Virus record (IMG/VR): IMGVR_UViG_3300047457_000833
Location: 1 to 53,849 of that record
From: a virus
Lineage: Duplodnaviria; Caudoviricetes
Length of the DNA stretch: 53,849 nucleotides
Reading direction: 5' to 3' (one strand)
The notes under the pieces are model-generated. The model made no database searches, was not told the origin of the DNA, and saw nothing but the letters and a program-made list of their open reading frames with translations. Position numbers and translations under genes: made by a program. Positions 36,257 to 53,849 of the stretch are shown one piece after another. Position 1 is the stretch's first letter; each line of letters begins with the position of its first letter.

Positions 36257-36515
36257 CGACCTGCAACCACTCGACATCGTCAAAGTTGTGTGGGAGGACG
36301 CCCACAACCTAGAGGATGGATGGAAAACCCTTGCTGATCTCACCGAAGAAGCGATCTCGTGCCGCATCGAGACCGTTGGCTTCTGGTTGATGCAAACGAA
36401 CGCGTTCGCGGTTCTCTGCTCCGATGTCGACCGTTCAAGTGAGCCAGTACACTTCCACACGGTGCTCACCATCCCGTTGCACTGCATCATCGAAATTGAG
36501 CGACTAAATGGCTAA
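36234..36515 (+). CDS. Hypothetical phage protein
   Basis: VKVVWEDAH...GW...TVGF...IPLHCI; GGAG RBS. Confidence 0.6.
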   Translation: MGIHATVNDLQPLDIVKVVWEDAHNLEDGWKTLADLTEEAISCRIETVGFWLMQTNAFAVLCSDVDRSSEPVHFHTVLTIPLHCIIEIERLNG

Positions 36516-37926
36516 AACAGACGGCTACGACTTTCAGGAGATCGGCTCCTCAGGACTCAAACGAGTCGCTGGTTTCATTGACGACGAAATCGTAAATTCG
36601 TTACGCGGCCTACAAGGCGCGAAAACCTATCGTGAGATGGCCGACAACGATCCCGTCATCGGCGCGATGCTTTACGCCATCGAGCGACTCATCATCCAAA
36701 TTGACTGGCGTGTCGAGCCATTCAGGGACGAAAACGACGAGACGACGAAGAAAGACGAAGAGATCGCCCAATTCGTTGAATCATGCCTGTACGACATGTC
36801 GGACTCATGGGAATCCACCCTCTCAAACCTCCTCACATTCCTCACCTACGGGTACGCATACTGCGAAATCGTCTACAAACGCCGCCTCGGACGCGACCAA
36901 GACGACCCGACGAAACGCTCCCAATTCGACGACGGACGGATCGGCTGGCGCAAGATCGCGCTCCGCGCCCAAGAAACCACATGGGAGTGGATGCTCGACG
37001 AAAAAGGCGGCATTCAAGGCCTCAAGCAGTTAGACCCATCAGTCGGGCCACTCGTAGAAATCCCCATTGAGAAGGCTCTGCTGTTCCGCGCCTCCACCGC
37101 CCGAAACAACCCCGAAGGACGCAGCATCCTCCGCAACGCATACCGCGCATGGCGATTCAAAAAGACCATCGAGGAAATCGAAGCCATCGGCATGGAACGC
37201 GACCTCGCAGGTATGCCCGTCGCCTATGTCCCTCCGTCAATGTTGTCGTCTGCCGCCACAAACGCCGAAGTTTCGGCCCGTTCCGCTATCGAGAACCTTG
37301 TGCGCGGCATCAAACGAAACGAGAACGAAGGAATCCTGTTCCCTCTCGCCTACGATTCCGAGGGCCGTCAAACCTACAAACTGGAACTGCTGAACGCTGG
37401 CGGCAACCGCCAATTCGACACCGACAAAATCATCACGCGCTACGACCAGCGCATCGCAATGACCGTGCTCGCCGACTTCATCCTGCTCGGCCACGCCAAC
37501 GTCGGATCGTTCGCGCTCGGCGCATCCAAAATCGATCTGTTCACGACCGCTATCGGCCAGATCGCACAGTCAATTGCTGAAACCTTCAACCAACACGCGC
37601 TCCCACGCCTCCTCAAACTGAACGGCATGGACACATCTCGAGCACCCGAACTGACGTTCGGCGAAATCACTCACGTCGACCTTGCACTGCTCGCCGACTT
37701 CATCCAGAAGGCGTCCGCAAGTGGCGCACTCATCATCGATCAGGGCATGGACGAGTACCTGCGCCTCATCTCGGGTCTCCCAGAGCGCGATCAAGAGTCT
37801 GCTGAAGGCGTGCCCCAAATGCCGAACAACGCCGCTTCTCAGCCACCTGCACCTCAACCTGCCGCCAAGCCAGAACCCAAACCTGAAGCCGATGCGCAGA
37901 CCGAAACACCGCCACAGCCGCAGTAA
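36508..37926 (+). CDS. Portal protein (Mu gp29/DUF935-like)
   Basis: EIGSSGL, YREMADNDP, NPEGRSILRNAYRAW, ERDLAGMP, GSFALG. Confidence 0.88.
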   Translation: MAKTDGYDFQEIGSSGLKRVAGFIDDEIVNSLRGLQGAKTYREMADNDPVIGAMLYAIERLIIQIDWRVEPFRDENDETTKKDEEIAQFVESCLYDMSDSWESTLSNLLTFLTYGYAYCEIVYKRRLGRDQDDPTKRSQFDDGRIGWRKIALRAQETTWEWMLDEKGGIQGLKQLDPSVGPLVEIPIEKALLFRASTARNNPEGRSILRNAYRAWRFKKTIEEIEAIGMERDLAGMPVAYVPPSMLSSAATNAEVSARSAIENLVRGIKRNENEGILFPLAYDSEGRQTYKLELLNAGGNRQFDTDKIITRYDQRIAMTVLADFILLGHANVGSFALGASKIDLFTTAIGQIAQSIAETFNQHALPRLLKLNGMDTSRAPELTFGEITHVDLALLADFIQKASASGALIIDQGMDEYLRLISGLPERDQESAEGVPQMPNNAASQPPAPQPAAKPEPKPEADAQTETPPQPQ

Positions 37927-38881
37927 CCACAGGCATCAACGCCGACCAGTCGCCAAGCAAGACTTCCGCGACGGCGAATTCGCGTCAGACCTCGAAGCCA
38001 TCTTCGCGCGCGAACTGTTGAACGCCATCGCCAAACTGCGCCGATCCGTCACATCCGCAGAAGTTGAGGCGGCCATTCGCCGATCCGTCGCCGACGCCGT
38101 GCGCGCCCTCGACGCCGCGTTCTCCGAGGTTGATCTCACAAACATCGTGAACTCGATGACAAAAGAAATCATCCGAGCAGGCCTCGAGCAAACCCCAGAA
38201 CTCGCGGCTGGAGGCATCAACATCCGCTTCGATGTGTCCGACCCACGCGCCATCCAATGGGCACAGAACAGGGCAGGTCTGCTGATCCGCAACATCACAG
38301 ACGAAGTCCGTCTCAAAGTGAGCGACGTCACCCAACGCCTCCTCACAGGCGACATCTCGCTACGAGAAGCACGCAACGAGATTTCACGCACAGTCGGCCT
38401 CCACGACCGATGGCAGAAAGCCGTCGACAACTCCTACGAGAAAACCCTCGAGCAACTCCTCGAGGCTGGCATCGACATCGACGAAGCCGAAACACTCGCA
38501 CAGGAAGCCGCCGACAACTACGCGCAACGCCTGCTGAAAACCCGAGCATCAAACATCGCTCGAACCGAAATGTCGACTGCCATGAATCAAGGCCGCTACC
38601 TGCACTGGCAGCAACTCGCCGAAGCAGGCGTCATTGACTCCGTTCGCTCAGTAAAAGAGTGGAGAACCGCACCCGAGTTCGTGTCATCAAAGACCGATGT
38701 TTGCCCGATTTGTGAGCCAATGAACGGCATTCAGGCTCCGATGTGGGCAGAGTTCCCAGAGGTTGGTGTGGTGATGCCTCCAGCCCACCCGAACTGTCGC
38801 TGCCGAGCAGTTCTTATCGTGGAACCTATCGCAGATGTCATTGATTATGTGACGTCGATGCGCGAGCAACTTGGCTATTAG
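37892..38881 (+). CDS. MuF (SPP1 gp7-like) head morphogenesis protein
   Basis: RASNIARTE, KEWRTA, CPIC, PPAHPNCRC; follows portal; start uncertain. Confidence 0.88.
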   Translation: MRRPKHRHSRSNHRHQRRPVAKQDFRDGEFASDLEAIFARELLNAIAKLRRSVTSAEVEAAIRRSVADAVRALDAAFSEVDLTNIVNSMTKEIIRAGLEQTPELAAGGINIRFDVSDPRAIQWAQNRAGLLIRNITDEVRLKVSDVTQRLLTGDISLREARNEISRTVGLHDRWQKAVDNSYEKTLEQLLEAGIDIDEAETLAQEAADNYAQRLLKTRASNIARTEMSTAMNQGRYLHWQQLAEAGVIDSVRSVKEWRTAPEFVSSKTDVCPICEPMNGIQAPMWAEFPEVGVVMPPAHPNCRCRAVLIVEPIADVIDYVTSMREQLGY

Positions 38882-39084: not shown

Positions 39085-42000
39085 GTGCCGTACCGCGTAG
39101 AACGCCGAGGGTCTTGCCCACCAGACCGCCCATTTGCAGTTGTTCTCGAGTCGTCAGGGGAGACGGTCGCCTGCCACGCGACACGCGCTGGTGCGGAGCG
39201 TCAAATCGCCGCCATCTACGCCTCTGAGCACGATTTGGAGAAGGAGCAGCCCACGTCGTCGGGTGTGCATGTTGACACGATCATGGGTGAGGAAGAAAAG
39301 CGTCGTCGCCTGCTGAAATTCGCGCCAGTGGCCGTGATCAAAGGAGACTATGTCGGTCATCCATTCAGAGGCAACCAATGGACGGACGCGTCTGGAGTCT
39401 CAAGGCAGCCAGCCGAATCTATGCGCGATATGAGTCGCGCAGGTCAATCATTGAACCCGACCGACGATCCTCTCGTTGCTGAAACAGAAGGCCGCCCGTT
39501 TGAGGGCTTCCTTGATTTGTCTCCAGAAACTCAAGCGATGCTTGATGCTCGCGATGCGTACTTCATTCGAGTGCGCGAAGTTCGTGACGAAGCGAAACGC
39601 ATCGTTGGTGAAAAAGAAGCAAAGGCATTCACAACCCCTGACGCACTGTTTGACGAGGCACAACGCATCGATCCGTCGTTCGCAGAGACACGGAAAGACG
39701 CGGTGTACACAGGCCCAAACGTCTACAAGATCGTTGACAAAATCAAAACCGATATGTTGCTCGCGTACGGAGCGAAACCGCTTCCTGAGGGCGAAACCGC
39801 GCCGACTCTCTATTATGCTGCTTTCACACGCGAAGAGTCGGGTCGCCTTACGTCCGAACAACGCACCATCGATCCTAAAGTAGACGTCACCCCGTTGCGC
39901 GAACGCGGTATGTCGGATCAACAAATAGGCGAACTGGTGCATGCCGTTGAAGTGAAAGCAAACCGTTTGCTTGACGGCCCCGAAGTCCGTTCCGCACAGT
40001 TCGGGCAGTCAGTTCCCGATCAGATCGCCGCAGAACGCAAATTGATCCCCGTGCTCGAGGAAGAACTCAAGAACGCTCGAGTGAGCGTCACAGTCACTCC
40101 ACGAATCCTGTCAAACATCCTCGCCGATGAACGGTTCAAGACGCAGTTTGAGACAGGGAAGTCAAGAGGATATAACTCAACGCAGGCCCGTCAAGACGAA
40201 GAACTAGCACGGTTCGGCTACCCCACACAGATGCCAGCCGACAAACGACCTGTTTACGGGATGATCGAGGTTGGTGGCCTGCGCACCCCGAGCGAACGCG
40301 GAAACCTCCAATATGGCAATGTGCTGGTGGTGCTGAAACCAGAAGTTGCCGACCGCACCACGTTCTCCGCAGATGATTCTCTCAGCAATTACCGTCCAAG
40401 CGCACCGCTTCGTGAACCGAATACGCGCGGCATTTTGTCGGCCTTCGTGGAGAACACTCACACGGCAGACGAGATTCGGTCAGGCGAAATGTATCTTGAG
40501 GCTCAAGTGCACGGTGGAGTCAAGTTGTCCGATATTGGGATGGTCATCTTCGAGTCTGGCGTCCAAATCGAGAACCGTAGCGGAGACAAAGTCAAGACGG
40601 CGACCGCGCCGAGCGCAGCCCTGCTGAAACGACTCGAGAAGGCTGGCATTCCGTACCAGATCGTGACGTCAGGCGCAGACATTAAGCCTGTCGAAAAAGC
40701 AGTCGGCTTTGACCCGACGCTACTCATCAAAGGCGATTATGTCGGCCACCCGTTTCGCGGCAACCAGTGGACAGACGCGTCAGGAGTGTCTCGTCGGCAA
40801 GCCATGTCGGGTGCTGATCGCTCGAGTGGTATCGCCAACTTGCAGGCTGTAGACACCGTTGAGGAGGCGCGTGCCACAGGCCGCCCACTCAAGATTCTGC
40901 AACCCGAGCACTATCCACCACAGGTCAAAGCAGCGTTAGCGGCCCATCGACAGGCCCAAGACGCGATCAACGCGCTACACGAAGAGATTGTAGGACAACC
41001 CGAAACCGAAGAAGCCACTAAACGCTTTTATGCTGATCGACGCGTACAAGTCGCGGAACTTGCACTTCAGTTAGCACTAGATGAAGCCAGAGTGCAACTC
41101 ACTACCGAACTTGCAAAGAAATATGGATTCACAGTTGAACAAAACCCAGAAGCACCCTATGAACGCATTCCATACGAGAACGTTTGGCGTGATCCCGATG
41201 GCCGTCTCAAGCGCGAAGAAGCATATTTTTACCCATCGAAGTTTGCGGAAGGATATCGCTGGACTGCCGCACCGTTAACACTGCTTAACCCAGATGGCTC
41301 TTACCGTCTTGTTTATCAGGGCGAAAACAAAGAACAAAAGTTGGGCTACGAATCGTTCTACGGGATTCCTATCGAGTCCTTGCGCACAGGGAAACCACCT
41401 TTTAGTTCATACGACGCTTCGGGCAATCCTGATCAACCACAACAAGACCAGAAGGCTGTTGATGCAGCGCGACAAATATTAATTAAAGAGGCCAAAGACC
41501 TCGGTATCGATTTGCCTGAAACCACTCAACCGCCACGCCTATCCGCCAAAAACCTTAAAGGAAGCCTGTCTGACGACGACATAGGTGTGCTTGGAAGCCA
41601 CATTTTCCAAACGGGTATGCGAGCGTTTCTTGGGGAAACTAAAGAAATCGATACGACGTTGTCTTGGACTGACCCAAAGGGCGACGTCACGGCGACCCTC
41701 ATTGCGAGGCAGGGCCGATTAGTGACAGACGACGCTCCGCTTTCGGTGACTGTTCCAGCGAACAAGGTTGGAGCGATTCTCAAGGATGGCCGCCTAAAAA
41801 GCCAGTTTGAGACAGGCAGATCGGGTGGCAAGAACGATCCCGAGATTCGTGCCGATTGGGAGGCCGCCATGTTCGGCTATCCGCGTGGCATGAATCCCGA
41901 GCAGAGGCCGATTTACGGGATGGTTGAAACAGGTGGCCCAAAGCCGTCCTCGACGCGAGGCAATGAGCAGTATGGCACGGTCACGCTTGTGCTGAAAGAT

Positions 42001-44754
42001 GACGTGAAGGATCGAGCGACCTTCACGAACGGCGACTCTCTTAACATGAACAGACAGTTTGTTCCAGTGCGTGACCCGTCAAGCCGTCTGGCCCAAGAAA
42101 GAGTGTCGGGTCGTATGGAGGTCGGAGATGACAACGACACCTACTACGAAACCCAGATTCACGGTGGAGTCAAAACATCCGACATCGCTAAAGTCATCAT
42201 CGACACACGAACCTACAAAGACTTCAAATGGATTAGCGTTCCTCCGTCTGCTGCGCTGCTGAAATCACTAGACAAGGCTGGCATCCCCTACGAGATCGTG
42301 GCAGGCAAGAACTTCCAAGACCCCGAAGCGCATAAAAGCGCGACACCCATCCTCGCCAAAGGCGACTATGAAGGCCACCCTTTCCGAGGTAACCAGTGGG
42401 TCGACGCGTCAGGCGCACGACCAGCATTCGCAATCCCCGACAACGGCGTTGATTTCAACCCGTACAGTGCTGAAGCCAAAGACTATTCGGAGATGGATCG
42501 CCGCAACGAACGCATCGAGTTCTCTGCGAACGCGTCCGTCGCCTTCGACGACGCGCGTCAAGCCGACCTGCTTCGTCTCAACGATCTGCGCGGAGTGGGC
42601 ATTATCGAGGTTCCTGCACCAGCCGACAAAACGAATCCGCGTCGCTACAGGCTTGTGGTGCGTCTCGGCGGCTACGACACAACCCTTGTTCTTGATTCCT
42701 TGAAGGAGCATCGCAACTTTGATGAGGCTTTGAAACGCAAGCCGAAGGTGCAGGAACTGCTCGAGGAATTCGTCAACAACCCAACACTCAAAGTTCGTGC
42801 CATCGACGCCGACGTGTGGGAGTACGAGTATGTCGCACAGTCAGGGCCGAACAAGGGTCGCACCATCACGAAGCGCACATCGTTCGTGAAACCGCAGTAT
42901 TCGCAGCAGCCCGATGTGGTTCTGAAGTCACTCAGCGTGACCAAAGGCGACTATGTGGGCCACCCGTTCAGGGGTAACCAGTGGATGGACGCCAACGGCG
43001 TGCCGCGTGGTGAAAGCAGGTCAGGAGAGTCAATCAAGATCGAGCGTCCCGAGATAGGCGACCTTGTGCTTGCTGCCGAACATGATGTCGGTCACACGGA
43101 CACGGTGGCCATGTTCCTCACCGACGACATCAGGCGACGCGACAACGCCCTAACCGAGTCACGCAATCAGGCTTTAGGTCTTGAGGGATTTCAGGGCGAA
43201 GGAACCTACGGCGCGTCGTTCTTTAAGCATCAGGTTGCTTTGGGTGTTGCTGAAACCCTGTCGTCAGTCCCGTTTGACGAATCCAAAACCGCCTTCACTG
43301 ACCTTATGGCGTTACAAGGCTATGAGGATGAGGCGCGCATCTTTACTGACGGTTTGCGCGGCTTGGTGAAAATTGATGATTCCGTGATTGTTAAGCCAGC
43401 CGAATACGAAGGCATGGTTTCAATCACGATCAACGGCGAGGAATCCCTTCACACCATTTCAGACCTCATCACAGACGGTGGAGCGATTCTTTCTCTGCCT
43501 AACCCAAATTCAAAGATTCGCGGCATCATTGGCTTTGACGAAAAAGCATTCAAGAATGTGCTGGAGGCGGAAGGTCTCAGCGTTTTATGGAACCTCGACT
43601 ACATCCCAGAATCCCCGAGAGAGCCTGATCCGCGACTCAAAGATAAACGAGAAGCGTGGCTACGCGCCTTCAAGGCGGGCCTCACAAGCCCAAACGCTGG
43701 CCAAGACATCGTTGTCGACGTGAGCGAATCGTTCCCAAGAATTGATGGTGGTCTAGAGATTCGGCGAGTGGAGGACGGTTTTAGGGAATTGTCACGCATC
43801 CCTCGGAATCGTGGCGAAAATATCAAGAGTCTTTATCTTGATCTAGGGAATCAAGCGTCTCGAGACCTTCAGACCCTCATCCCTAACGGCTTGGTCTTTG
43901 ACAAAGAAACGGTCGTCGGTTATGGGCTGGCGACGCAACTTGTCGGGAACTGGGCCAAAACTGCCAACGACTCGCACGTTGTAGCGCACCTAATTCAGGA
44001 CGTGGCCCGTCAAGAATTCGGTCTTGAACAAGCCACTGACTGGTCTACTAAAACGATGACCCTCACTGGTGAACCGCAAATTCAGGAACAAAGCCGCGCA
44101 CTGCTCAAACAGAACGGGCCGCTTGTCAAAACGATAGGGCTTGCACTGCGCTCGATGCATGACGCCACTCAACGCCATTTTGAGGCACAAGGAATCCAAT
44201 ACGTGCTGCTTTATCGTGGTGAAGGCGACACACCTGATTCCACAGAAAGCGATTCACTCACGACGCAAGTTAACCAATTGGGTAACATCGGGAAAGGCGT
44301 TACTTCTATCGCTACCACTCGCCCACTGTCGTCGTGGGCAGCGACCGTGTCGACTGCTGAACAGTTCTCCTATGGGTCGCGGAGCGCGATAGCGCGAGCC
44401 ATAGTACCCATCCAAGACATTCTGTCCATCCCATCTACAGGCTTCGGTTGCTTCGACGAGGATGAATTCGTGGTTCTCGGGCGGCCTCGCATGGTGGACG
44501 TGAACCTTGCCAGCACGATGGGTAGCCGTGCGTCTCTTGCAGTTGGTGGAGCACGACGCGTTCTTGACTTGGCAGAGAGCGTAGAGATGGCGTACCCGAG
44601 GGGATCTAATCGCGGTCGGGAGATGCGAGCATATTTTGAGATTCAACCAGTGAACACGGGCTACAAGGATGAAGCAGAGCGAGCGACGCAAGAAGCCCTT
44701 GACTCAGTCATCCGTCAACTTGAAGCCGATCCGAACACGATGATTCCAGCGTGA
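39085..44754 (+). CDS. 1889-aa multi-effector polyprotein: four GHPFRGNQW tags, two DUF3626-like domains, C-terminal ADP-ribosyltransferase
   Basis: Tags at 39340, 40729, 42358 and 42943; duplicated QFETG...RPxYG...QYG...HGGV domain; LYRG/LSSW/EDEFVV. Confidence 0.85.
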   Translation: MPYRVERRGSCPPDRPFAVVLESSGETVACHATRAGAERQIAAIYASEHDLEKEQPTSSGVHVDTIMGEEEKRRRLLKFAPVAVIKGDYVGHPFRGNQWTDASGVSRQPAESMRDMSRAGQSLNPTDDPLVAETEGRPFEGFLDLSPETQAMLDARDAYFIRVREVRDEAKRIVGEKEAKAFTTPDALFDEAQRIDPSFAETRKDAVYTGPNVYKIVDKIKTDMLLAYGAKPLPEGETAPTLYYAAFTREESGRLTSEQRTIDPKVDVTPLRERGMSDQQIGELVHAVEVKANRLLDGPEVRSAQFGQSVPDQIAAERKLIPVLEEELKNARVSVTVTPRILSNILADERFKTQFETGKSRGYNSTQARQDEELARFGYPTQMPADKRPVYGMIEVGGLRTPSERGNLQYGNVLVVLKPEVADRTTFSADDSLSNYRPSAPLREPNTRGILSAFVENTHTADEIRSGEMYLEAQVHGGVKLSDIGMVIFESGVQIENRSGDKVKTATAPSAALLKRLEKAGIPYQIVTSGADIKPVEKAVGFDPTLLIKGDYVGHPFRGNQWTDASGVSRRQAMSGADRSSGIANLQAVDTVEEARATGRPLKILQPEHYPPQVKAALAAHRQAQDAINALHEEIVGQPETEEATKRFYADRRVQVAELALQLALDEARVQLTTELAKKYGFTVEQNPEAPYERIPYENVWRDPDGRLKREEAYFYPSKFAEGYRWTAAPLTLLNPDGSYRLVYQGENKEQKLGYESFYGIPIESLRTGKPPFSSYDASGNPDQPQQDQKAVDAARQILIKEAKDLGIDLPETTQPPRLSAKNLKGSLSDDDIGVLGSHIFQTGMRAFLGETKEIDTTLSWTDPKGDVTATLIARQGRLVTDDAPLSVTVPANKVGAILKDGRLKSQFETGRSGGKNDPEIRADWEAAMFGYPRGMNPEQRPIYGMVETGGPKPSSTRGNEQYGTVTLVLKDDVKDRATFTNGDSLNMNRQFVPVRDPSSRLAQERVSGRMEVGDDNDTYYETQIHGGVKTSDIAKVIIDTRTYKDFKWISVPPSAALLKSLDKAGIPYEIVAGKNFQDPEAHKSATPILAKGDYEGHPFRGNQWVDASGARPAFAIPDNGVDFNPYSAEAKDYSEMDRRNERIEFSANASVAFDDARQADLLRLNDLRGVGIIEVPAPADKTNPRRYRLVVRLGGYDTTLVLDSLKEHRNFDEALKRKPKVQELLEEFVNNPTLKVRAIDADVWEYEYVAQSGPNKGRTITKRTSFVKPQYSQQPDVVLKSLSVTKGDYVGHPFRGNQWMDANGVPRGESRSGESIKIERPEIGDLVLAAEHDVGHTDTVAMFLTDDIRRRDNALTESRNQALGLEGFQGEGTYGASFFKHQVALGVAETLSSVPFDESKTAFTDLMALQGYEDEARIFTDGLRGLVKIDDSVIVKPAEYEGMVSITINGEESLHTISDLITDGGAILSLPNPNSKIRGIIGFDEKAFKNVLEAEGLSVLWNLDYIPESPREPDPRLKDKREAWLRAFKAGLTSPNAGQDIVVDVSESFPRIDGGLEIRRVEDGFRELSRIPRNRGENIKSLYLDLGNQASRDLQTLIPNGLVFDKETVVGYGLATQLVGNWAKTANDSHVVAHLIQDVARQEFGLEQATDWSTKTMTLTGEPQIQEQSRALLKQNGPLVKTIGLALRSMHDATQRHFEAQGIQYVLLYRGEGDTPDSTESDSLTTQVNQLGNIGKGVTSIATTRPLSSWAATVSTAEQFSYGSRSAIARAIVPIQDILSIPSTGFGCFDEDEFVVLGRPRMVDVNLASTMGSRASLAVGGARRVLDLAESVEMAYPRGSNRGREMRAYFEIQPVNTGYKDEAERATQEALDSVIRQLEADPNTMIPA

Positions 44755-44779
44755 TCTCACGCGCAGGTAGAGTGGCGTC

Positions 44780-45736
44780 GTGCTGAACCTTGATCCGACA
44801 CCGTTGGCAGCCGACTGGATGCGTGTCGTCGCGTTCAACGCAGAGTTCGGGCCAATCAACACGCTGGATGAATTTATCGACAAGATGGGGATCAGTCGCT
44901 CGTCGGCATTGCGTCCACAGTTAGCGCAGTACGCGTCGATGGCGTGGCTTCATTTGCTGCCGTACCCTGTGCAGCAGGCGATCAAGGAGGCGGCGAGAGT
45001 CTCGAAGGCTGTGCCGATGTTTGGGCCGTCCGTGCTGATCAAAGGCGATTATGTTGGCCACCCATTTAGAGGCAACCAATGGACAGATTCATCGGGTGTA
45101 AGCCGTAGCGGTCAGGGGTCTGGTGCGCGCCCGAGCGACAAAACGCTGCGCACCATCGCGTTTGAGATGGACTCAAAGATGGAAGTTCTAAAAGATGAAG
45201 GCGCGCGTCTCGTCAAGTTCGCTGGCGGCATCGAATTCGTAGACAGGCAGGCCTACATCGACCAACTTCCGCTTGTGTCGCGTGCAACACCGAATCATCA
45301 GGTGATCGCCAGTGGCGTGACAATGACAGAGGAAGCCCTGAATGACGAAGCCGATGTCGCTGTCATAGAGGATCGTGACGGACAGGTTTGTGGCGCAATT
45401 TCAATGAGCAGCAAGCCGTACACTTCTCAGGAGTTGTCGGAGTTTCTTGGTGGGGTCGACCCGAACTCAACTTGGATCGAGATGCGTAGCGCAGGCTCGA
45501 CAATGAAAGTTGATGGTGTCGGCTCGGGCTTGTTCGCGGCAGCGATTTCTAAGGCTGCCGAATCGGGGTCTGGCCTGTATTTGTCGCCGCTTGACGAGAG
45601 TGCCAGACAGTTCTGGGCTTCTAAAGGTTTCAGGGAGGCGGAACGCGTCGGTGGTAGCGAAGGCACCTACCAGTATCTGGACGCCGAATCGGTGCGAATC
45701 ATCGCCAACAACCTCGAGGAAGGGTGGGGCGCGTGA
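44780..45736 (+). CDS. Tagged protein with GNAT acetyltransferase-like domain
   Basis: Tag at 45041; DGVGSGLF...LYLSPLDESARQFWASKGF. Confidence 0.75.
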   Translation: MLNLDPTPLAADWMRVVAFNAEFGPINTLDEFIDKMGISRSSALRPQLAQYASMAWLHLLPYPVQQAIKEAARVSKAVPMFGPSVLIKGDYVGHPFRGNQWTDSSGVSRSGQGSGARPSDKTLRTIAFEMDSKMEVLKDEGARLVKFAGGIEFVDRQAYIDQLPLVSRATPNHQVIASGVTMTEEALNDEADVAVIEDRDGQVCGAISMSSKPYTSQELSEFLGGVDPNSTWIEMRSAGSTMKVDGVGSGLFAAAISKAAESGSGLYLSPLDESARQFWASKGFREAERVGGSEGTYQYLDAESVRIIANNLEEGWGA

Positions 45737-47865
45737 TTCCAGCCTTCGATCTATTTGATGTCGCTTTAACGGACGAGGATGTGCTGAAAGGCGACTACGT
45801 AGGTCATCCGTTTAGGGGAAACCAGTGGATGGACGCGAACGGTGTCGCTCGAGGCGACGCAGGGTCATCTCCCGATCAAGACAAGCAGGCCTACGACCTG
45901 CGTCAACAGGGCAAATCTTGGGAAGAGATCGCCAAGATTCTCGGCTACGCGAACGGTGGCTCGGTGCGTCGTCTGGCGATGCGTCACGAGAAACGACTGA
46001 AGGACGGCGGTCAGGAAGTGGTGAAACCTGAACCCAAACCTGAGCCGAAGGTTAAGCCGCCGAAGGGTCGTGAACCTGAAAATTATGACGAGGCTGTTGC
46101 GCTGGCTAAATCGCTAATCAAGGCCACGTTCAACGGTGACGCCATCGCCACGCTCACTAAATTGATGGCGGATTCAGGGAAAACCTTTGATCCGAACGAT
46201 GAGGCATACAAACTGACTGATGCCGAACGCGTAATGGAGGAGAAGGTTCTAATGGTCGGGGACGCTGTGCGGATGGCGTTGGCGTTCGCTCAAGCCCAAG
46301 CAAGTGGCCTCGACCCGAAGGAAGCGGCGCGTGTCCGAGAGGAGCATGACGCGCTTAAGAATGCGTGGCAGAAACTAGTAGACGCCCGTGCGGAAGCAGA
46401 AAAAACCGCGCTGGCGGATGCCAGAAAAGCATTGACTGGATCAAAACAAGGTGCATCTTGGAATCCAACTTTCACAGTTAGCAGTTTCGCGGATCAGATA
46501 GCCGCTGCGAGAGCACTAGCCGAGCGTGACGGTCTGCTGAAACCAGACGAATCAATCCAATACATCGGTGGGAGCGTGGCGTTAGGTTTTGCTGGAGCAA
46601 AAGCATCAACAGAACTGCAAACCCTTGTGGATCAGTTAAAAGCCGACGAACCCACTGCCGATGTTAGAACTCGCGGCAAAGATCTATTCGTGCCAGTAGA
46701 CCCTCGCAGCACTACCGCGAGCCTTGTGCGCGCCGTGTACGACGCCAACAAAGACGCATTGCAGTTGATTGAGGCACTCTCGAGCGAAGTCACCGCAGGC
46801 AGAAAAACCGTTGCCGAGGTGAAACAAATCTTGTCCTCGCCCACAGCCATTGTTGACCAGATGAACCGCACCTATGTGCTTCCAGAAAACAAAGGGGAAC
46901 GAACCGACAACGATTACCGTGACACCCATGCAGGTTGGAGTGGTCGTCAAGTGTCGCTGCTGAAACCAGAAACACGACAAGAAATGCTCGTCGCCGCAGT
47001 CCAGAAAGCGGCCCAAAGTTCCAACATTGTCGACTCCATCGGTGCGGTAATGAGCCGACCGATTGGTGATCTCGTCGGCGTCAACATAGGAAAACTTGAC
47101 CCGACGATGACCTATCGGCAGGTTCAGGAACGTCAAATTGAAATCAACACTAAAATTAGAGAACAAAACGAAAAGCAAGAAGCAAGCGGAATCTCTCGCG
47201 GAACTGTCGTTAGACGCGTCCTTGAAGATGTCGGTGTCAAAATGGCCTCTCCTGACCTGTTGCGTGTCAACTTTGATCCGAAGCGCAAGGATGCTGCGGA
47301 ATTGACTGCGGCGGCACGCGAAATCTCGATGATGCTCCCTCGAGCGTTCGTGCTTGGTTCTGATTCGCTCAAACCTCAGTTCTCTGGCGGTGGCCACATG
47401 ACGGCGGAACTCAAGTTCGGTGGCGGTCGCGCCCACGCCCAGAATCTGATGGGTGGCAAATTCATCATCAAACATGAAACCATTCCTACAAACTCGGCCA
47501 GAGGCCTTACTTCGTGGAAGTCGGTGTTTCTTCACGAGACGGTGCACGGAATGGAGTACGCAAATCCCCTAATCCGCTACCTCGAATACTTGACTTGGAC
47601 TCGGCGTGGCGAAGGCGAGCCTTTGCGAACACTAAAATCGATCACAGGCGCGTCGGGGTATCAGTCTTACGAAAAGGGCAAGAAGGATGCGTGGGGAAAC
47701 GCTTACGCTGGCAAAGAATACGGTAAAAGCGGAACGTCAACGTATGAGATCATGACCACAGGAATGCAAAGCCTCTATTTTGGGGATGAGCGCGCCGACC
47801 GCGAGCATTTGAATGCGGTGCTCGGAATTTTGGCGGCGGCAAGCACACTGGCAGGCAACAAATGA
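45733..47865 (+). CDS. Tagged protein with HTH and C-terminal zincin metallopeptidase
   Basis: Tag at 45787; SWEEIAKILGYANGGSVRR; FLHETVHGME...YAGKEY...YEIMTTGMQ. Confidence 0.75.
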   Translation: MIPAFDLFDVALTDEDVLKGDYVGHPFRGNQWMDANGVARGDAGSSPDQDKQAYDLRQQGKSWEEIAKILGYANGGSVRRLAMRHEKRLKDGGQEVVKPEPKPEPKVKPPKGREPENYDEAVALAKSLIKATFNGDAIATLTKLMADSGKTFDPNDEAYKLTDAERVMEEKVLMVGDAVRMALAFAQAQASGLDPKEAARVREEHDALKNAWQKLVDARAEAEKTALADARKALTGSKQGASWNPTFTVSSFADQIAAARALAERDGLLKPDESIQYIGGSVALGFAGAKASTELQTLVDQLKADEPTADVRTRGKDLFVPVDPRSTTASLVRAVYDANKDALQLIEALSSEVTAGRKTVAEVKQILSSPTAIVDQMNRTYVLPENKGERTDNDYRDTHAGWSGRQVSLLKPETRQEMLVAAVQKAAQSSNIVDSIGAVMSRPIGDLVGVNIGKLDPTMTYRQVQERQIEINTKIREQNEKQEASGISRGTVVRRVLEDVGVKMASPDLLRVNFDPKRKDAAELTAAAREISMMLPRAFVLGSDSLKPQFSGGGHMTAELKFGGGRAHAQNLMGGKFIIKHETIPTNSARGLTSWKSVFLHETVHGMEYANPLIRYLEYLTWTRRGEGEPLRTLKSITGASGYQSYEKGKKDAWGNAYAGKEYGKSGTSTYEIMTTGMQSLYFGDERADREHLNAVLGILAAASTLAGNK

Positions 47866-48188
47866 TTCGTATAACCGCGATGTCGGGTGGTGAAACGCTG
47901 CAGGCCACCGAAATGGAGGTTGGCCTGTGGAGCGTCAGTCCTCTCGAGTTCGCAGACTTCTTTGACTCGGCCACTGTTCCGTCGAGCATCGTGGTGTTGG
48001 GTGGCACTCAAATCGTTTACCCCGACTGGCGGTCAGATGACCCGATGATTCGGCTCTACGCTGCGCAATATGTCATCCAGCGATACTTTGATTTGACGTA
48101 CGGCGAAGCACGACCCATCGAATACACGATCACAGGCATTGCTGAGCAGCCAGATACGGATGATCTGCCACCAGACACGGTGTTCTAG
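47862..48188 (+). CDS. Small acidic protein coupled to the metallopeptidase gene
   Basis: ATGA overlap; 108 aa; ends DDLPPDTVF. Confidence 0.6.
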   Translation: MIRITAMSGGETLQATEMEVGLWSVSPLEFADFFDSATVPSSIVVLGGTQIVYPDWRSDDPMIRLYAAQYVIQRYFDLTYGEARPIEYTITGIAEQPDTDDLPPDTVF

Positions 48189-48191
48189 ACT

Positions 48192-49718
48192 GTGACCATG
48201 ATTTCTGTCGGAGACATCCTCGAGCGTCCACGCAAATCAGGCGGTGTTGAGCGCGCTCTGGTTGAGAAGGTGCGCACGTCAGGCAACGTGCTGATCAACG
48301 GCTCGCAGGTAGCCGCAACCTCCGAGAACCCTGTGGTCACAGCCAGAATCGTGGTACTGGACGGCGAGTCGGTGCTCAAGACTCGAGCCACACGCACTTT
48401 CGTGCACAAAATGCACGGCGACGACCATGAGATGGGCGTTTATACGCTTGTTCCGCGCCAGAAGGCGATGTACGAGATGTATGAGGCCATCGTCGGGCAG
48501 ATGGGCCAGTTTGATAAAAGTGTTGGTGGGAATGGTGCTCACTACGCGGACGGCACGGAGAACGTGTTCCTGTCGGAGGGGATGCAGTGCGCTAACTGCG
48601 TGTTTTACTGCGGTGGCCGAGCCTGCGAAGTTGTTGCTGGAGACATCGACCCGTTGGGCATCTGCAAACTGTGGATCATCGCTGAGCCTCTTCTCGGCCA
48701 GCAGGCTACGCCTGTGCTGATCTCTGAGCGCGAACTAGGGATTGAGAAGGCATCAAACTTCACTCCACCGCAAGCGGTGCGTGACGCCGCGCAACGGGCC
48801 GTCAAATGGATCGAGGAAGGGAAGGCTGGCGACGGCTTCACGGCGGTCGGTGCAGGCCGTGCGCGCGATCTCGCAGCAGGACGGGCAGTGTCGCTCGAGA
48901 CCGTCAAGCGGATCTCCAACTTCCTGTCGCGCCACGAAGTTGACAAGAAGGCCGAAGGCTTCAGTCAAGGGGAGAACGGCTACCCCTCGGCAGGTCGTGT
49001 CGCTTGGGATGCATGGGGAGGTGATCCTGCGAAGAGTTGGGTGAGTGGAATCCTTGCCGATGTCCAAAAGGCCGCCAAACTGAAGGAAGGCCAGTTCGTT
49101 CGCTGGAACTCGTCAGGTGGCCCTGCGCAAGGCCGCATCGAGCACGTGATGGAAGAAGGCACGCTCGGCGTCCCGAACTCAAGGTTCAAGATTAACGCGC
49201 AGCCCGACGACCCTGCGGTGCTGATCCGCATCTATCAAGAGGGTGCGGACGGATGGGTGGAAACCCCAACCCTTGTCGGTCACAAGGCGTCGACGCTTCG
49301 TCGTATCGAGCCTCTGTCAAAAGCGACACGCCTCATCAAGCAGGCCACCGAGGAACGCTTCACTCTAGCCCCTTGGTATATTCCAGAAAAATATGATGCG
49401 CAGAACGAGTGGACGGACGCGCGCGAACTTCAGAAAGCGTTGTGGGAATACGTTCAGTCTGGTGATCGCACCATCCGTTTGCAGCACAACAAGAATGTGC
49501 GCGCTGGCGAATGGGTGGAAGCAATGACGTTGCCGCACTCGTGGACGACCCCGATGACGAAAGCCAACGGCGCAACCACCGAGATCACATACCCTGCTGG
49601 AACCGTGCTTCTGGGCGTCATCTGGGACGACTGGGCGTGGGACATGGTCAAGAAAGGCGAGATCACGGGCTTCTCCATCGGTGGCTCAGCGGAACGCCTC
49701 GACCTCGAAATGCCCTAA
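48192..49718 (+). CDS. Multidomain prohead protease (C-terminal XkdF/S78-like) with HiPIP-like and DUF2945-like domains
   Basis: ERFTLAPWYIP...DAQNEW...ELQKA...LQH...VKKGEITGFSIGG; CANCVFY...C...C-LW; VRWNSSGG. Confidence 0.8.
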   Translation: MTMISVGDILERPRKSGGVERALVEKVRTSGNVLINGSQVAATSENPVVTARIVVLDGESVLKTRATRTFVHKMHGDDHEMGVYTLVPRQKAMYEMYEAIVGQMGQFDKSVGGNGAHYADGTENVFLSEGMQCANCVFYCGGRACEVVAGDIDPLGICKLWIIAEPLLGQQATPVLISERELGIEKASNFTPPQAVRDAAQRAVKWIEEGKAGDGFTAVGAGRARDLAAGRAVSLETVKRISNFLSRHEVDKKAEGFSQGENGYPSAGRVAWDAWGGDPAKSWVSGILADVQKAAKLKEGQFVRWNSSGGPAQGRIEHVMEEGTLGVPNSRFKINAQPDDPAVLIRIYQEGADGWVETPTLVGHKASTLRRIEPLSKATRLIKQATEERFTLAPWYIPEKYDAQNEWTDARELQKALWEYVQSGDRTIRLQHNKNVRAGEWVEAMTLPHSWTTPMTKANGATTEITYPAGTVLLGVIWDDWAWDMVKKGEITGFSIGGSAERLDLEMP

Positions 49719-49747: not shown

Positions 49748-49776
49748 TTGACTACGGCCCAGAAATGCCGTACCTT
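49748..49776 (+). promoter_or_regulatory. Putative promoter of an inserted (moron-like) unit
   Basis: TTGACT-17 bp-TACCTT, then GAGGAGGAG RBS and ATG 49805. Confidence 0.55.
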
Positions 49777-50422: not shown

Positions 50423-50844
50423 ACAGAACCCAACGGCGATCAAGGAAACATGCGGTGAAAGAATTTGCGGCACTCGACAACGCGCTCCAGTCCGCAGATA
50501 ACGCTGCCCGTATCTTGCTCAAAGACCCCACCAGCCCTGCTGAAAGCCGTTACACGGCGGCTTGGGCCGAGATTCCGATGTGTGACCGCAACAAGCCACT
50601 CTTGCGCATCTGTGACCGCTACAGGATCGGGATGCAGGGGATCGGGATGCGTGAAACAGGCTCGGTTCAGGCGCGCGTGTTCAAACCTCGAGCCGATTCA
50701 CGGCTGTCACGCGAACTGTGGCGTCAAGCGTCAACGGAGCGTCGCATGGCTGCCGAGGTTGACTGGGCCACAGAGTTCGTTGCGTGCCTCCGCAGGTGGG
50801 AGTTCGTCGCGTCTGCTCACTGCCGTGTCGGCGATAACGGTTGA
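50419..50844 (+). CDS. Hypothetical basic protein
   Basis: GGAG RBS, GTGA coupling, MNRTQRR start. Confidence 0.45.
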   Translation: MNRTQRRSRKHAVKEFAALDNALQSADNAARILLKDPTSPAESRYTAAWAEIPMCDRNKPLLRICDRYRIGMQGIGMRETGSVQARVFKPRADSRLSRELWRQASTERRMAAEVDWATEFVACLRRWEFVASAHCRVGDNG

Positions 50845-50857
50845 CGGGTGGGCTACT

Positions 50858-52024
50858 ATGGCGACTGAGATGAACCAAGACGCGATCTACAAGATGTTTG
50901 CGGCGTCCCCTGTCGGGAAGTCGATGTCGGCTGCTGATCTTGACGCGATGCGTCAAATGCTCGAGACGACCCCTGTCACACAGATCGGTGGCTGGTACGG
51001 GGAGCAGATTCGCAAGGCTGCCCGTCTCGCCAAAGGCGATTACGTTGGGCATCCGTTCCGAGGCAACCAATACACCGACGCATCAGGCGTGGGACGAGGC
51101 TCCTCAAGTGGGCCTTCCAGCCGTCGCAGCACCGCCGAGATTGACGCCATCAACGAGCGTCTGGCACGCACAGGCGACAAGCAGTTGATGATGGACGGGC
51201 TTCTCAGCAGTGCTCGAGCAGACGTTGACGCAGCGATGCGTGCAGGGAAAAACAACGTACCGTTGATTGACGGTCTTGCGCTGCTGGAAACCGCGAACCG
51301 TGCAGGCGTTAACACTCCAGAAGGCAAGCAGGCACTTCAACGCGCCTTCGACTGGCTCGAGAACGAGAACTATCACGGGCTTGCTGAAGGCGTCCATAAC
51401 ATCATGCAGGCCAGAGGCCCGAAGAACGGCTACATGGAATTTGAGCGGGATGCAAAAGACTTCGTGTCGTCGCAGATCGCGGAGACCGCACTCTTCGCGG
51501 AAACCGACCTGAAACGACAGATGGACGGCATCGACGGAATCATCGAGACATCAAAAGGCGCAATCGACAACGCCGACGTCAAAGCCGAAAGAAGCGAGAA
51601 TTTTGAGAGCGAGGACGCCGCGAAAGATCGCAAGGACGCATCCGATGTGACTCGCGCTGAGACGCGACTCCAACGGCACGCGAAGGAAGTCAAATCAGTC
51701 TTGGAATCCCTGATCGTATACAGTCGGAATGGGCGCACCGATTCAAACGCTGGTGATATCGAGCGCGCCTACAAGAACCTGTTCAGTAAGGCCTCTCAAC
51801 TTCAGATGCTTCGCTCTGAGATCATGCGCGATAGCGAATTTGAGCGCACCGCAAGCCGTCAAGGTTTTGCTGGCGGCAAGAGCGTCACTGGCAAGTACGG
51901 TTTGCTTCTCGGCAGCATTCGGCAGGCATTAGAGGCGATCAACGAAGTCCAGTCTGAGGTTGATAGTTCCAGCGAATCGATCCGTCAATCCGCCGAACAA
52001 ATGTACGCAGACTCGAAGGGATAA
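50858..52024 (+). CDS. Tagged helical/coiled-coil protein
   Basis: ATG 50858 after the 50844 stop; KGDYVGHPFRGNQYTDASG at 51032. Confidence 0.75.
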   Translation: MATEMNQDAIYKMFAASPVGKSMSAADLDAMRQMLETTPVTQIGGWYGEQIRKAARLAKGDYVGHPFRGNQYTDASGVGRGSSSGPSSRRSTAEIDAINERLARTGDKQLMMDGLLSSARADVDAAMRAGKNNVPLIDGLALLETANRAGVNTPEGKQALQRAFDWLENENYHGLAEGVHNIMQARGPKNGYMEFERDAKDFVSSQIAETALFAETDLKRQMDGIDGIIETSKGAIDNADVKAERSENFESEDAAKDRKDASDVTRAETRLQRHAKEVKSVLESLIVYSRNGRTDSNAGDIERAYKNLFSKASQLQMLRSEIMRDSEFERTASRQGFAGGKSVTGKYGLLLGSIRQALEAINEVQSEVDSSSESIRQSAEQMYADSKG

Positions 52025-52028
52025 TAAA

Positions 52029-53174
52029 GTGGCCGAAGTTCGCAAGTGTTCATGTGGTGAAGGTAACCAGCAGGTGCTCGACACGCTGCGCTCCACCACG
52101 CTGGCCGAGATGCCTGTGGACGAATTCAACGAGATCGTCGACGACGTCAACAAGGCTGGCGGCATCCGCAACCTGTCAGGTTTGTCTCGGGTGCTGATCG
52201 AGAAGGCGTTGAACGATTTGCGTGCAGGTGTAGAGAAGGGCGACTACGAAGGTCATCCATTCCGAGGAAATCAGTGGACTGATTCGTCAGGTACTGGACG
52301 TGGCGGCGCAGGCGGTGGGCCAAAAGGTTCTAAGAATCAACGGGCTAGATATTTTGACAGTGCACCTGACCGCCCACAGACCGCTGGTGCTAGATATTTT
52401 GACAGTGCGCCCGACCGCCCACAGGCCGCTGGTGCTAAATATATCGACATGAAAGGGAATTCTCCTCGTCGCGCTGAGAGTGTGCAACAGGAACTGAATC
52501 GCCTGTCTAGAGAAGGCCTACAAAGTCAAATCGATGAACTGAAGATGTATATCGATGACCATAAGGGAATGGCTGAAGTTCTACGCGACCTCGGCAACGA
52601 GGATGGCGCACGACAAGCAGAAGCCAACGCTGCGAAAGCAGAGAAAGAGGTGCGCGGCCTAAAAGCGGAGATCGACAGGCGTCAAAAGCGATTCGAAATG
52701 GATCAAAAAACGGAGTCCGCTAAGACAAAAGTCACCGAGGACAACATTGATTCCAAATTGAAAGGCGATGACCTAAAGCAGTTCAAAGCGCAGGTCAAGG
52801 AAGCCGAGACTGCTGTCAAAGAATTCCGTAAAACTGTCGCAGATATACAAAAGCGCGTGGCCGCCGAAGGAGTTCGTGGCGTTGCTTCTATTCTTAAAGA
52901 AGCACTCAATGAGGCTCGGACGTTTGAGAAGTTGGTGCGCGACGCCAAAGCAGCACCAACCATTCGTCAAGCGGTACGAATGACGTCGTTAGGAACAAAT
53001 GCTGGCGAAAACGCTAAGGGTGCGCTTCGAGAGGTTTTGGGGAAACTAAAGGGCGGCGAAAGCGATGCTGATACAGAAGCAATAAATGCTCTGCAAACTG
53101 CTGGCGACAAATATTTTGGTCTTTCGCCAGACCGATACAACCTTGATGATGCCTTTGATTTCATTGATAGTTGA
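52029..53174 (+). CDS. Tagged coiled-coil protein
   Basis: GTG 52029; KGDYEGHPFRGNQWTDSSG at 52236; K/E/A-rich helices. Confidence 0.75.
   Translation: MAEVRKCSCGEGNQQVLDTLRSTTLAEMPVDEFNEIVDDVNKAGGIRNLSGLSRVLIEKALNDLRAGVEKGDYEGHPFRGNQWTDSSGTGRGGAGGGPKGSKNQRARYFDSAPDRPQTAGARYFDSAPDRPQAAGAKYIDMKGNSPRRAESVQQELNRLSREGLQSQIDELKMYIDDHKGMAEVLRDLGNEDGARQAEANAAKAEKEVRGLKAEIDRRQKRFEMDQKTESAKTKVTEDNIDSKLKGDDLKQFKAQVKEAETAVKEFRKTVADIQKRVAAEGVRGVASILKEALNEARTFEKLVRDAKAAPTIRQAVRMTSLGTNAGENAKGALREVLGKLKGGESDADTEAINALQTAGDKYFGLSPDRYNLDDAFDFIDS
52344..52442 (+). repeat. 45-bp in-frame tandem repeat (about 2.2 copies)
   Basis: Units start at 52344, 52389 and 52434, encoding ARYFDSAPDRPQ[T/A]AG. Confidence 0.9.
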
Positions 53175-53259: not shown

Positions 53260-53849
53260 ATGGGTGCGCGCAAGATGGTGAAACTCAAGGTCGAAGAGAC
53301 CTCTGGGGTCGATCATCCAGCGCATCTGGAAGAAGGTTGGATCGTCATGAAGTCAGCGAGCAAGGGAGCGAAAGTGGCCAAGCAGCCCAACATCGAGATC
53401 GAAGTCGGAGCAGAGGAAGAGGAGATGAACGAGGAAATGGAAACCGAGAAGGCCGCGTCTGAAGAGACTGATTTCGAGGCGATGTTCGCCAAGATGAAGG
53501 AAGAGCGCGACATGTACAAGGGCAAGTACGAGGACTTGATGAAGGAAATGTCGCCCGAGGACGATGAGGCCTCGATGGAAAAGGCGATGCCTGAGGCTGT
53601 CCGCGAAATGCTGAACAAGGCTCGCAACGAGGCCGAGGCGGCACGCACCGAACTCCGCAAGGAAGTTGAGCGTCGTCAGGATCGCGAGTATGTGGCAAAG
53701 GCTGCTGCTTGGGGCAACCTGTCGCTCAACGCCGAGGAAGTTGGCCCGATGCTTCGCAAGATGGCAGAGACCAACGGCGAACTCGTTGACGCTGTGATGG
53801 GCGCACTGTCGTCCGCTAACGCACAGGCAGAGGCCGCCAACATCTTTGC
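53260..53849 (+). CDS. Capsid scaffold protein, 5' part (continues through the junction to 310)
   Basis: Open frame MGARKMVKLKVEETSGVDHPAHLEEGWIVMKS..., acidic coiled coil; missing from the ORF track because it has no stop before the window end. Confidence 0.8.
   Translation, partial: MGARKMVKLKVEETSGVDHPAHLEEGWIVMKSASKGAKVAKQPNIEIEVGAEEEEMNEEMETEKAASEETDFEAMFAKMKEERDMYKGKYEDLMKEMSPEDDEASMEKAMPEAVREMLNKARNEAEAARTELRKEVERRQDREYVAKAAAWGNLSLNAEEVGPMLRKMAETNGELVDAVMGALSSANAQAEAANIF
53712..53849. repeat. Terminal direct repeat / circular overlap, copy 2
   Basis: Matches 1-138 with two synonymous mismatches. Confidence 0.95.

Follow-up and report, generated by a model that had tools for sequence, protein, structure and literature searches.

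Tagged proteins between the portal and capsid genes

The phage contig IMGVR_UViG_3300047457_000833 was analysed over its full record of 53,849 bp, referred to here as the window. From its portal gene to its capsid gene it encodes about 5,000 residues of enzyme-like, putative cargo proteins, many of which share a 13-residue peptide, GDY[VE]GHPFRGNQ[WY], referred to here as the tag. A six-frame scan of the window with the pattern G-x-[YFWLH]-x-G-[HN]-x-[FYW]-x-G-[NQ]-[QP] found nine copies of K-GDY[VE]GHPFRGNQ[WY], every one of them behind [V/L]-x-K. The lysine is position -1 and the hydrophobic residue position -3. On the plus strand the tags start at nucleotides (nt) 39343, 40732, 42361 and 42946 in one open reading frame (ORF 39085-44754) encoding 1889 amino acids (aa), and at 45044 (ORF 44780-45736), 45790 (ORF 45724-47865), 51035 (ORF 50465-52024) and 52239 (ORF 51960-53174). 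On the minus strand a tag starts at 33375 (ORF 32569-33549). Six of the nine lie inside 39085..49718 and three outside it, these being in the ORFs 50465-52024, 51960-53174 and, on the minus strand, 32569-33549. The tripeptides preceding the nine tags are VIK, LIK, LAK, VTK, LIK, VLK, LAK, VEK and LRK. These are the same tripeptides as were named in an earlier sequence-only reading, made without database searches, which took them for sites of a head protease that cuts after lysine.

The family to which the tag belongs can be defined as G-[DE]-x-x-G-H-P-F-R-G-N-Q-[WYHF], with a hydrophobic residue at -3 and a Gly/Ser-rich stretch after it. This fits all nine window copies, each with a Gly/Ser-rich stretch downstream. 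Compared pairwise, the DNA of the nine tags is 69-93% identical, with third codon positions only 21-86% identical. The divergence of the third positions indicates that the peptide, including the lysine, has been kept by selection, and it rules out recent duplication or gene conversion of the tags. The cargo genes and their parts are as follows, a slash marking the proposed cut.

39085..44754, plus strand: 1889-aa polyvalent cargo protein, with a leader domain at aa 1-48 and tag-led modules from aa 87, 550, 1093 and 1288
39334..39381, plus strand: tag 1 with its entry site, VIK/GDYVGHPFRGNQW
40108..40464, plus strand: DUF3626 (SopF-type), copy 1, in module A (Pfam PF12294, E 2.7e-10 on the module alone)
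40723..40770, plus strand: tag 2 with its entry site, LIK/GDYV...; second site VEK538/AVG 11 residues upstream
41767..42057, plus strand: DUF3626, copy 2, in module B (Pfam PF12294, E 7.6e-23 on the whole protein, 2.6e-13 on the module)
42352..42399, plus strand: tag 3 with its entry site, LAK/GDYE...
42937..42984, plus strand: tag 4 with its entry site, VTK/GDYV...; second site VLK1281/SLS 6 residues upstream
44780..45736, plus strand: 318-aa cargo protein, with an 85-aa leader, tag (45035-45082), Gly/Ser linker and weakly GNAT-like module
45724..47865, plus strand: 713-aa cargo protein, with a 22-aa leader, tag (45781-45828), middle part and C-terminal HExxH domain
47862..48188, plus strand: 108-aa protein without a tag, conserved in one relative
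50465..52024, plus strand: tagged coiled-coil protein, tag at 51026-51073 (LAK/GDYV...GNQY), with a homologue in relative G010
51960..53174, plus strand: tagged coiled-coil protein, tag at 52230-52277 (VEK/GDYE...)
32569..33549, minus strand: tagged ParB-like protein, tag at 33337-33384 (LRK/GDYE...), DGHHR motif in its C-terminal part

The 1889-aa ORF starts 204 nt downstream of the MuF gene, which places it in a virion-gene context adjoining portal and MuF. DUF3626 is a domain of Salmonella SopF, according to the passage on it in PMC6682159. With two DUF3626 copies and two further modules, the protein has the two or more effector-type domains by which polyvalent proteins are recognised. An AlphaFold model of residues 1-1200 (11 sequences, mean predicted local distance difference test score, pLDDT, of 51) is confident at aa 1-48 and falls to pLDDT <50 at 49-159, 529-586 and 1075-1200. 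These stretches hold K86 with tag 1, K538 and K549 with tag 2, and K1092 with tag 3, and lie between better-predicted modules. The public gene call starts at M67 and gives 1823 aa. The longer, GTG-started form is likely, since the upstream 66 codons (39085-39282) are conserved in a relative, to which aa 1-107 are 70% identical, and since residues 1-48 are folded confidently in the model.

The GNAT match of the 318-aa protein (E 0.034) is under the Pfam cut-off. The minus-strand tagged protein belongs to phrog_2859 and has a 64% identical homologue in relative G008; its ParBc_2 match is just E 0.13. The first approximately 130 codons of ORF 50465-52024 (50465-50860) are Arg/Ser/Cys-rich and unlike protein, and are overlapped by ORF 50419-50844; translation probably begins at an internal ATG, a good way into the listed ORF.

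Close relatives, with portals 82-87% identical, have the same modules in other orders, in other fusions or as separate genes. In two relatives, polyproteins of 956 and 1489 aa end with the module that the 318-aa protein carries here; a 1639-aa ORF has the 713-aa protein as its final cassette, and in one relative modules A and B have changed places. Alignment ends between relatives coincide with tags, and the cassettes have been reshuffled at tags. The sequence-only reading had the 1889-aa protein cut into at least four effectors. Of that claim the four tag-led modules stand, reordered or separately encoded as they are in relatives; their release by cutting would depend on the processing weighed below.

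The head genes surround this block.

36508..37926, plus strand: Mu-type portal protein (Pfam Portal_Mu, E 1.1e-35)
37947..38881, plus strand: MuF-like head protein, start uncertain (Pfam Phage_Mu_F, E 1.6e-9; PHROG head morphogenesis families)
53275..53849, plus strand: scaffold protein, first part (phrog_13547)
2..310, plus strand: scaffold protein, last part, the ORF continuing over the contig ends
752..1702, plus strand: major capsid protein, lambda gpE-like, without an N-terminal delta domain (Pfam Phage_cap_E, E 3.5e-5)

The ends of the contig repeat, positions 1-138 and 53712-53849 forming a 138-nt overlap with 136 bases identical. The contig is therefore circularly closed or terminally redundant, and the scaffold gene (53275 to 310) is cut in two by the linearisation point. 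Tail genes occupy 7-17 kb, replication and methylase genes 18-30 kb, and the large terminase 30950-32572; these are followed by the portal, the MuF-like protein, the cargo block, the scaffold across the ends, a small cement-like protein and the capsid. A 224-aa ORF (49748-50422) between the protease and tagged coiled-coil genes has no tag and no Pfam or PHROGs match. Elsewhere, an adjacent gene pair at 27090-29791 starts in each case with a ParB-N domain, the second gene also having an N6/N4 DNA methylase, and a C5 cytosine methylase lies at 24374-25387. A tandem pair of paralogous Gly_rich_2 genes (12736-14453), after the tape-measure and tail genes, probably encodes tail fibre or tip proteins.

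Spread of the tag and the residue before it

The tag is found in many other phages. A degenerate DNA pattern identified at least 169 stretches in IMG/VR with at least 187 tags, at least 164 of them distinct. A profile built from 149 tag stretches matched 1,656 of 1.84 billion protein cluster representatives at E <=1e-3, and 323 at <=1e-10. There are up to nine matched stretches in one protein, and the best 150 of the 1,656 clusters contain 359 tags by a strict regular expression, at a median spacing of 256 residues. Tag proteins carry MuF, ADP-ribosyltransferase (ART), topoisomerase IB, Zeta-toxin, 2H, NUDIX, ParB, DUF3626 and XkdF domains. Tags stand directly after MuF and protease domains, which belong to head-internal proteins. 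Other lineages, too, have tagged cargo genes following the portal gene and followed by that of the head protease.

The first tag is no more than 40 residues from the start in 93 of 221 tag proteins examined. Leaders are often just 5-30 residues long, and even those of five residues end in hydrophobic-x-K, or in x-L or x-F. Position -1 is lysine in 61-64% of tags, being so in 100 of the 164 distinct IMG/VR tags among the matches listed and in 230 of the 359 in the best 150 clusters; the remaining tags have Leu, Phe, Asp, Arg, Asn, Ser or Ala there. One of V/L/I/A/F/M stands at -3 in 140 and 282 of the same two sets, respectively. A single -1 residue is used throughout in 95 of 116 multi-tag proteins, where shuffles give a mean of 38 and a maximum of 48.

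The -1 residue covaries with the family of the head protease across 27 contigs. Of the 15 contigs whose tags have Lys or Arg at -1, an XkdF-type protease, recognised by PF14550 or as a homologue of protein P0005, is present in 14 (the window, G002, G006, G017-G026 and G029); of the 12 with F, L, D, S, A or the start Met, none has it (Fisher p 7.5e-7, kinship among contigs ignored). The only K-type contig that lacks it, G001, has a weak match to HK97-type Peptidase_S78 directly before a tag, and in the sole Arg-type contig of the set XkdF is right beside the tag. Two Leu-type contigs, probably kin, have a Mu-like protease adjoining their tags and a third Leu-type contig does not; a Phe-type contig has a phrog_18402 protease after its tagged polyproteins. 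HK97-type Peptidase_S78 was ruled out as the protease of the non-K lineages, being found in 0 of 5. The K-type contigs are diverse, ranging from 34 to 118 kb, with varied tag variants and XkdF E-values from 3e-7 to 6e-29.

One alternative is that the tags are uncut anchors or spacers. Polyvalent proteins would then be packaged and delivered whole, with the tag, including its lysine and -3 residue, binding a head component or spacing the modules. Conservation of -3 to +13 as one block, kept even behind five-residue leaders, is what such a role would give, and some polyvalent virion proteins, e.g. the N4 virion RNA polymerase, are packaged unprocessed, as described in the relevant part of Iyer et al. 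2017 (PMC5512222). Uncut anchors would not account, however, for a -1 residue that differs from one protease family to the next although the tag is otherwise constant, nor for the tag-less hydrophobic-x-K sites at the domain borders of the protease ORF and crowding the scaffold, described below. This alternative is unlikely, though it deserves to be taken seriously.

A second alternative is that the metallopeptidase-like HExxH domain of the 713-aa protein (aa 500-713, nt 47221-47862) does the cutting in place of the head serine protease, in the head or after injection, by recognising the conserved tag; a conserved enzyme would account for a conserved tag. The structure neighbours of this domain in the ESM Atlas, which are leads only, include MuF-associated, DdrB-like and zincin clusters, the last of matrixin, M30 and MA type, and a section of Iyer et al. 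2017 (PMC5512222) predicts that such domains process polyvalent proteins. The 713-aa protein belongs to phrog_33618, which is also beside tagged genes in G004 and G005. Among G000, G001, G002, G003 and G011, however, this family is present in the window only, and G002 is rated 100% complete and has at least 11 tags. Since phrog_33618 is missing from two near-complete, tag-rich contigs, the HExxH domain is unlikely to be a general tag protease. It has no Pfam match and no PDB sequence match, and cutting by it would leave the link between -1 and the serine-protease family without an account. A role for this domain in cutting at the tag is therefore improbable.

Among cultured phages (50,697 records), no match was found to the 1889-aa gene by megablast, or to the 318-aa protein or a 42-residue tag stretch by tblastn, and the 713-aa protein matched through its last 100 residues only. 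The nearest cultured relatives of the protease, in Arthrobacter phage Edmundo and Microbacterium phage ValentiniPuff, are tag-free in the regions examined. No cultured phage with the tag was thus found among these records. In full-text literature searches GHPFRGNQ was found in no paper and, of its shorter pieces, just GHPF, in unrelated contexts, among the matches listed. Neither a 'GNQ' motif nor a 'linker' came up when the main text of Iyer et al. 2017 (PMC5512222) was searched by term.

Reference genomes, one per species, gave 51 pattern matches, of which approximately 18 are real in-frame tags and the others are chance or out-of-frame. Those of betaproteobacterial genomes are D-type, those of Akkermansiaceae N-type. 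In-frame tags with Asp at -1, preceded by an acidic leader, occur in Ideonella livida TBM-1 (L199) and in Hydromonas duriensis DSM 102852 (L231), and an Akkermansia muciniphila metagenome-assembled genome (L233) has one with Asn at -1. Named bacteria with in-frame tags may be usable as experimental systems.

In contig G002 a single ORF (L174:7570-9009, minus strand) joins an XkdF protease, a K/GDFEGHPFRGNQY tag and a Zeta-toxin/AAA_33 kinase, and MuF is fused to two tagged cassettes. Many other XkdF proteases with a C-terminal Zeta-toxin (e.g. P0265, P0276, P0290 and P0309) have a different tag-like peptide just behind the protease domain. It follows hydrophobic-x-Lys/Ala, ends in AANQRW and occupies the position of the GHPFRGNQ tag of G002, which suggests from sequence a wider group of such tags.

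The protease ORF and its candidate cleavage sites

The protease gene of the window sits in the head module, between the portal/MuF genes (portal at 36508) and the scaffold (53275) and capsid (752).

48192..49718, plus strand: 508-aa protease polyprotein, with candidate cuts after K186, K293, K377 and K383
48747-48749, 49068-49070, 49320-49322 and 49338-49340, plus strand: codons of K186, K293, K377 and K383, respectively
49332..49700, plus strand: XkdF-type (Peptidase_S78_2) protease domain (Pfam PF14550, E 6.1e-13)

The XkdF-like protease that had been predicted here is borne out by the PF14550 match, at 49.3 bits against a Pfam cut-off of 24, which spans residues 381-503 and profile positions 5-125 of 126. 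Neither His432 nor Ser495 varies among 120 aligned homologues, and by analogy with the family the two are the candidate catalytic pair.

In an AlphaFold model of the ORF (120 sequences, mean pLDDT 77.8), residues 1-75 form a beta domain, 190-294 a helical domain, 302-372 a Tudor domain and 390-494 the protease. Between the first two lies a Cys-rich low-confidence part (159-186 at pLDDT <50), and between the Tudor domain and the protease a linker (378-385 at pLDDT <50). The sites IEK186/ASN, VQK293/AAK, LSK377/ATR and LIK383/QAT, all present as the sequence-only reading had them, fall on the model's three domain borders, K377 and K383 sharing one. Enrichment of such sites at predicted borders holds in part. 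Four of the seven sites in the ORF are in the approximately 7% of residues at borders (p 8e-4, with the borders drawn after the model was seen), while the remaining three, K415, K457 and K488, are inside the protease fold. Among aligned homologues, 38 of 42 have Lys at position 186 and 29 of 43 have Ala after it. At position 383, 103 of 119 have Lys, and P3 (third residue before the cut) is hydrophobic in 108 of 119. Both positions are in stretches at pLDDT <50. The alignment columns around K293 and K377 are poorly aligned and uninformative. A hydrophobic-x-K is found just upstream of the protease core in nearly all of 105 distinct homologues, regardless of the part that precedes it.

The short motif is also over-represented in the head and cargo proteins as a group. 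With crude longest-ORF gene calls, hand-corrected at eight places, 39 copies of [VLIM]xK[GAS] are counted in the ten head/cargo proteins, 2.4-fold the 16.0 that 300 within-protein shuffles predict. Leaving out the nine tag sites still gives 30 against 16.0 (Poisson p approximately 1e-3). In all remaining called proteins there are 30 against 27.2, which is no enrichment. The scaffold has 6 against 1.1 expected, and the sites VMK/SA, VAK/QP and MEK/AM noted earlier in it are present, as are those noted as closing domains, VEK538/AVG and VLK1281/SLS in the 1889-aa protein and VSK76/AVP in the 318-aa protein.

It could be argued that the motif has no processing meaning, hydrophobic-x-Lys-small being common in amphipathic helices and in Lys/Ala-rich coiled coils, and that the XkdF link is a lineage marker. 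K519, K1060, K1064 and K415 are indeed in predicted helices, Lys and Ala abound in the scaffold and in both tagged coiled-coil proteins, and the statistics of the contig comparison ignore kinship. The shuffles that give 16.0 where 39 are observed keep composition, however, and the tail tape-measure protein, which is helical too, has just 9 copies where 5.7 are expected. The conserved K186 and K383 are in low-confidence linkers, and the K-type contigs vary widely in size, tag variant and XkdF score. That the motif is without such meaning is thus hard to credit.

A Foldseek search with the whole multi-domain model of the protease ORF against PDB gave nothing at E <=0.001. Complex prediction for the protease domain (386-508) with the tag alignment scored 0.01 against a mark of 0.32 and is uninformative either way. 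No cleavage specificity of XkdF was found in the literature naming it, among the matches listed, and a literature search on lysine specificity of prohead proteases gave nothing usable. The helical domain within the protease ORF (48750-49070) and the ParB-like end of the minus-strand tagged protein (32569-32920) match separate parts of phrog_2859, which is 740 positions long; this family is also found in a 965-aa ORF of contig G004.

Proposed processing in the head and its relation to known systems

HK97 gp5 reads F-N-K103/S104, with F101 at -3, i.e. hydrophobic-x-Lys/small, and the K103/S104 bond is its maturation cut. Because the HK97 maturation site has this form, cutting of the tag sites after lysine by the XkdF-type protease is the best reading, and one about evenly poised between right and wrong. 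It is probable that the cargo is taken into the head and separated into its modules inside it, since the tag follows a lysine site that resembles a head-protease site. The block from portal to scaffold would then be a capsid-cargo system. Its nine cassettes are all built alike: hydrophobic-x-Lys at the end of a leader or of the module before, the 13-residue tag GDY[VE]GHPFRGNQ[WY], a Gly/Ser-rich linker and a folded module. The modules include two SopF-type DUF3626, one weakly GNAT-like, one HExxH, one ParB-like and two coiled-coil proteins, and four cassettes are fused within the 1889-aa protein. The cargo would enter the procapsid, where the XkdF-type serine protease, itself made as a four-part polyprotein and cut at its own domain borders, would cut after lysine (P3 hydrophobic, P1 Lys, P1' Gly/Ala/Ser). 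Modules starting with the tag would be released and the scaffold broken down. The cassette layout, its conservation and spread, and the match between -1 and the protease family are observed; packaging, cleavage and delivery into the host are what we infer from them.

Several points weigh against this reading. Residues on the P' side of the proposed cut are strongly conserved, unlike in T4, and the lysine and -3 hydrophobic residue could be part of a binding surface of the tag, which the five-residue leaders would fit equally well. The three motif copies inside the protease fold, and three of the seven sites in residues 1-1200 of the 1889-aa protein (K519, K1060 and K1064) that are in predicted helices, make six within predicted folded parts, so the tripeptide by itself is no mark of a border. 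For the 1889-aa protein, a model from so few sequences at so low a mean pLDDT makes low confidence weak evidence of disorder. A second, domain-closing site 5-12 residues upstream of the tag, proposed at the outset, is found in the window (6 of 9 tags) and does not extend to the family, where 34 of 214 K-type tags have one against a 13% background; it was rejected as a general rule. In the comparison of proteases, shared ancestry is uncorrected, the contigs were hand-picked from the tag list, and many are incomplete (27-100% by CheckV). The K-type fragments G007-G010 (<=17% complete, no P0005 match) were omitted, and counting them would make 14 of 19; Arg-type G011, for which no PF14550 search was made, was also omitted. 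The processing first proposed thus gains from the XkdF domain, the HK97 site, the domain borders, the -1 covariation and the four modules, and loses by the second sites and the motif copies in folds. The sequence-only reading had also passed over the three outlying tags, the HExxH domain as a second possible protease, and the position of the conserved residues behind the proposed cut, which sets the tag apart from the T4 model.

If the sites are cut, the conserved tag remains attached to the products and must therefore serve some purpose itself, for instance in loading, retention or exit. That it is invariant in phages whose proteases and hosts differ points to a universal partner or role. As a tentative and rather less assured proposal, GDxxGHPFRGNQ[WY] might be a portable address label for head-carried proteins co-injected with the DNA, used by phages of many bacterial phyla and with -1 matched to the head protease that the given phage encodes (Lys/Arg where it is XkdF-type, Leu where it is Mu-type).

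What happens in the first minutes after infection is decided by phage proteins injected with the DNA, which act in anti-restriction, in host takeover and as toxins; outside T4, P1, N4 and the giant phages such proteins are hard to recognise. If the reading is true, the tag with its protease-matched entry site would make such cargo recognisable in metagenomes, and the injected protein set of a phage could be read from sequence alone. The 1,656 clusters already flagged by the tag profile include ADP-ribosyltransferase, topoisomerase IB, Zeta-toxin, 2H-phosphoesterase, NUDIX, ParB and SopF-type domains. Tag and matching site would be a general loading route into HK97-fold capsids, and the T4 principle of 'load, cut, inject' would extend to the HK97/XkdF protease clan with another P1. 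The link between -1 and protease family yields a simple prediction for the bench.

In HK97 the gp4 protease (Peptidase_S78) belongs to a serine-protease family related to the XkdF type. It differs in that it trims the capsid protein's own scaffold (delta) domain, whereas the capsid protein here is without a delta domain and the protease is proposed to act on a scaffold encoded separately, on its own polyprotein and on the cargo.

In T4, the internal proteins IPI-III and Alt enter the prohead as cargo that includes an ADP-ribosyltransferase; the gp21 prohead protease trims them at L/I-x-E before they are injected, and a short N-terminal capsid-targeting peptide, portable between unrelated cargo, is removed, according to the passages on T4 in PMC9026906. 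The likeness proposed here from sequence is a head-protease cut at a three-residue motif with a hydrophobic P3. The differences are a P1 of Lys instead of Glu, so that the sites are not of the T4-type L/I-x-E, and a protease of XkdF/S78 type instead of S77. The conserved peptide here follows the proposed cut and would stay on the product, the cassettes are fused into polyproteins, and the tag is common to phages of many lineages, not one family. In phiKZ and SPN3US, many head-internal and ejection proteins are cut at a short motif by gp175 and gp245 (PMC9026906, PMC10052503); that protease is T4-type with Glu at P1, and no common downstream tag appears in the passages of these sources on the cleavage.

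Polyvalent proteins were predicted to be packaged, processed and injected in the part of Iyer, Burroughs, Anand, de Souza and Aravind 2017 (PMC5512222) that concerns them. They resemble the tagged cargo in being multi-domain effectors beside portal/MuF, and tag proteins have ART, ParB-like, Zeta-toxin, 2H, NUDIX and possibly metallopeptidase domains. The processing enzyme proposed in that section of PMC5512222 is a metallopeptidase domain and not the head protease; the possible counterpart of this domain in the window is the HExxH domain of the neighbouring 713-aa protein, to which structure-neighbour leads point without a Pfam match. In kind, the tagged cargo is a variant both of the T4-style 'load, cut, inject' system and of the polyvalent proteins.

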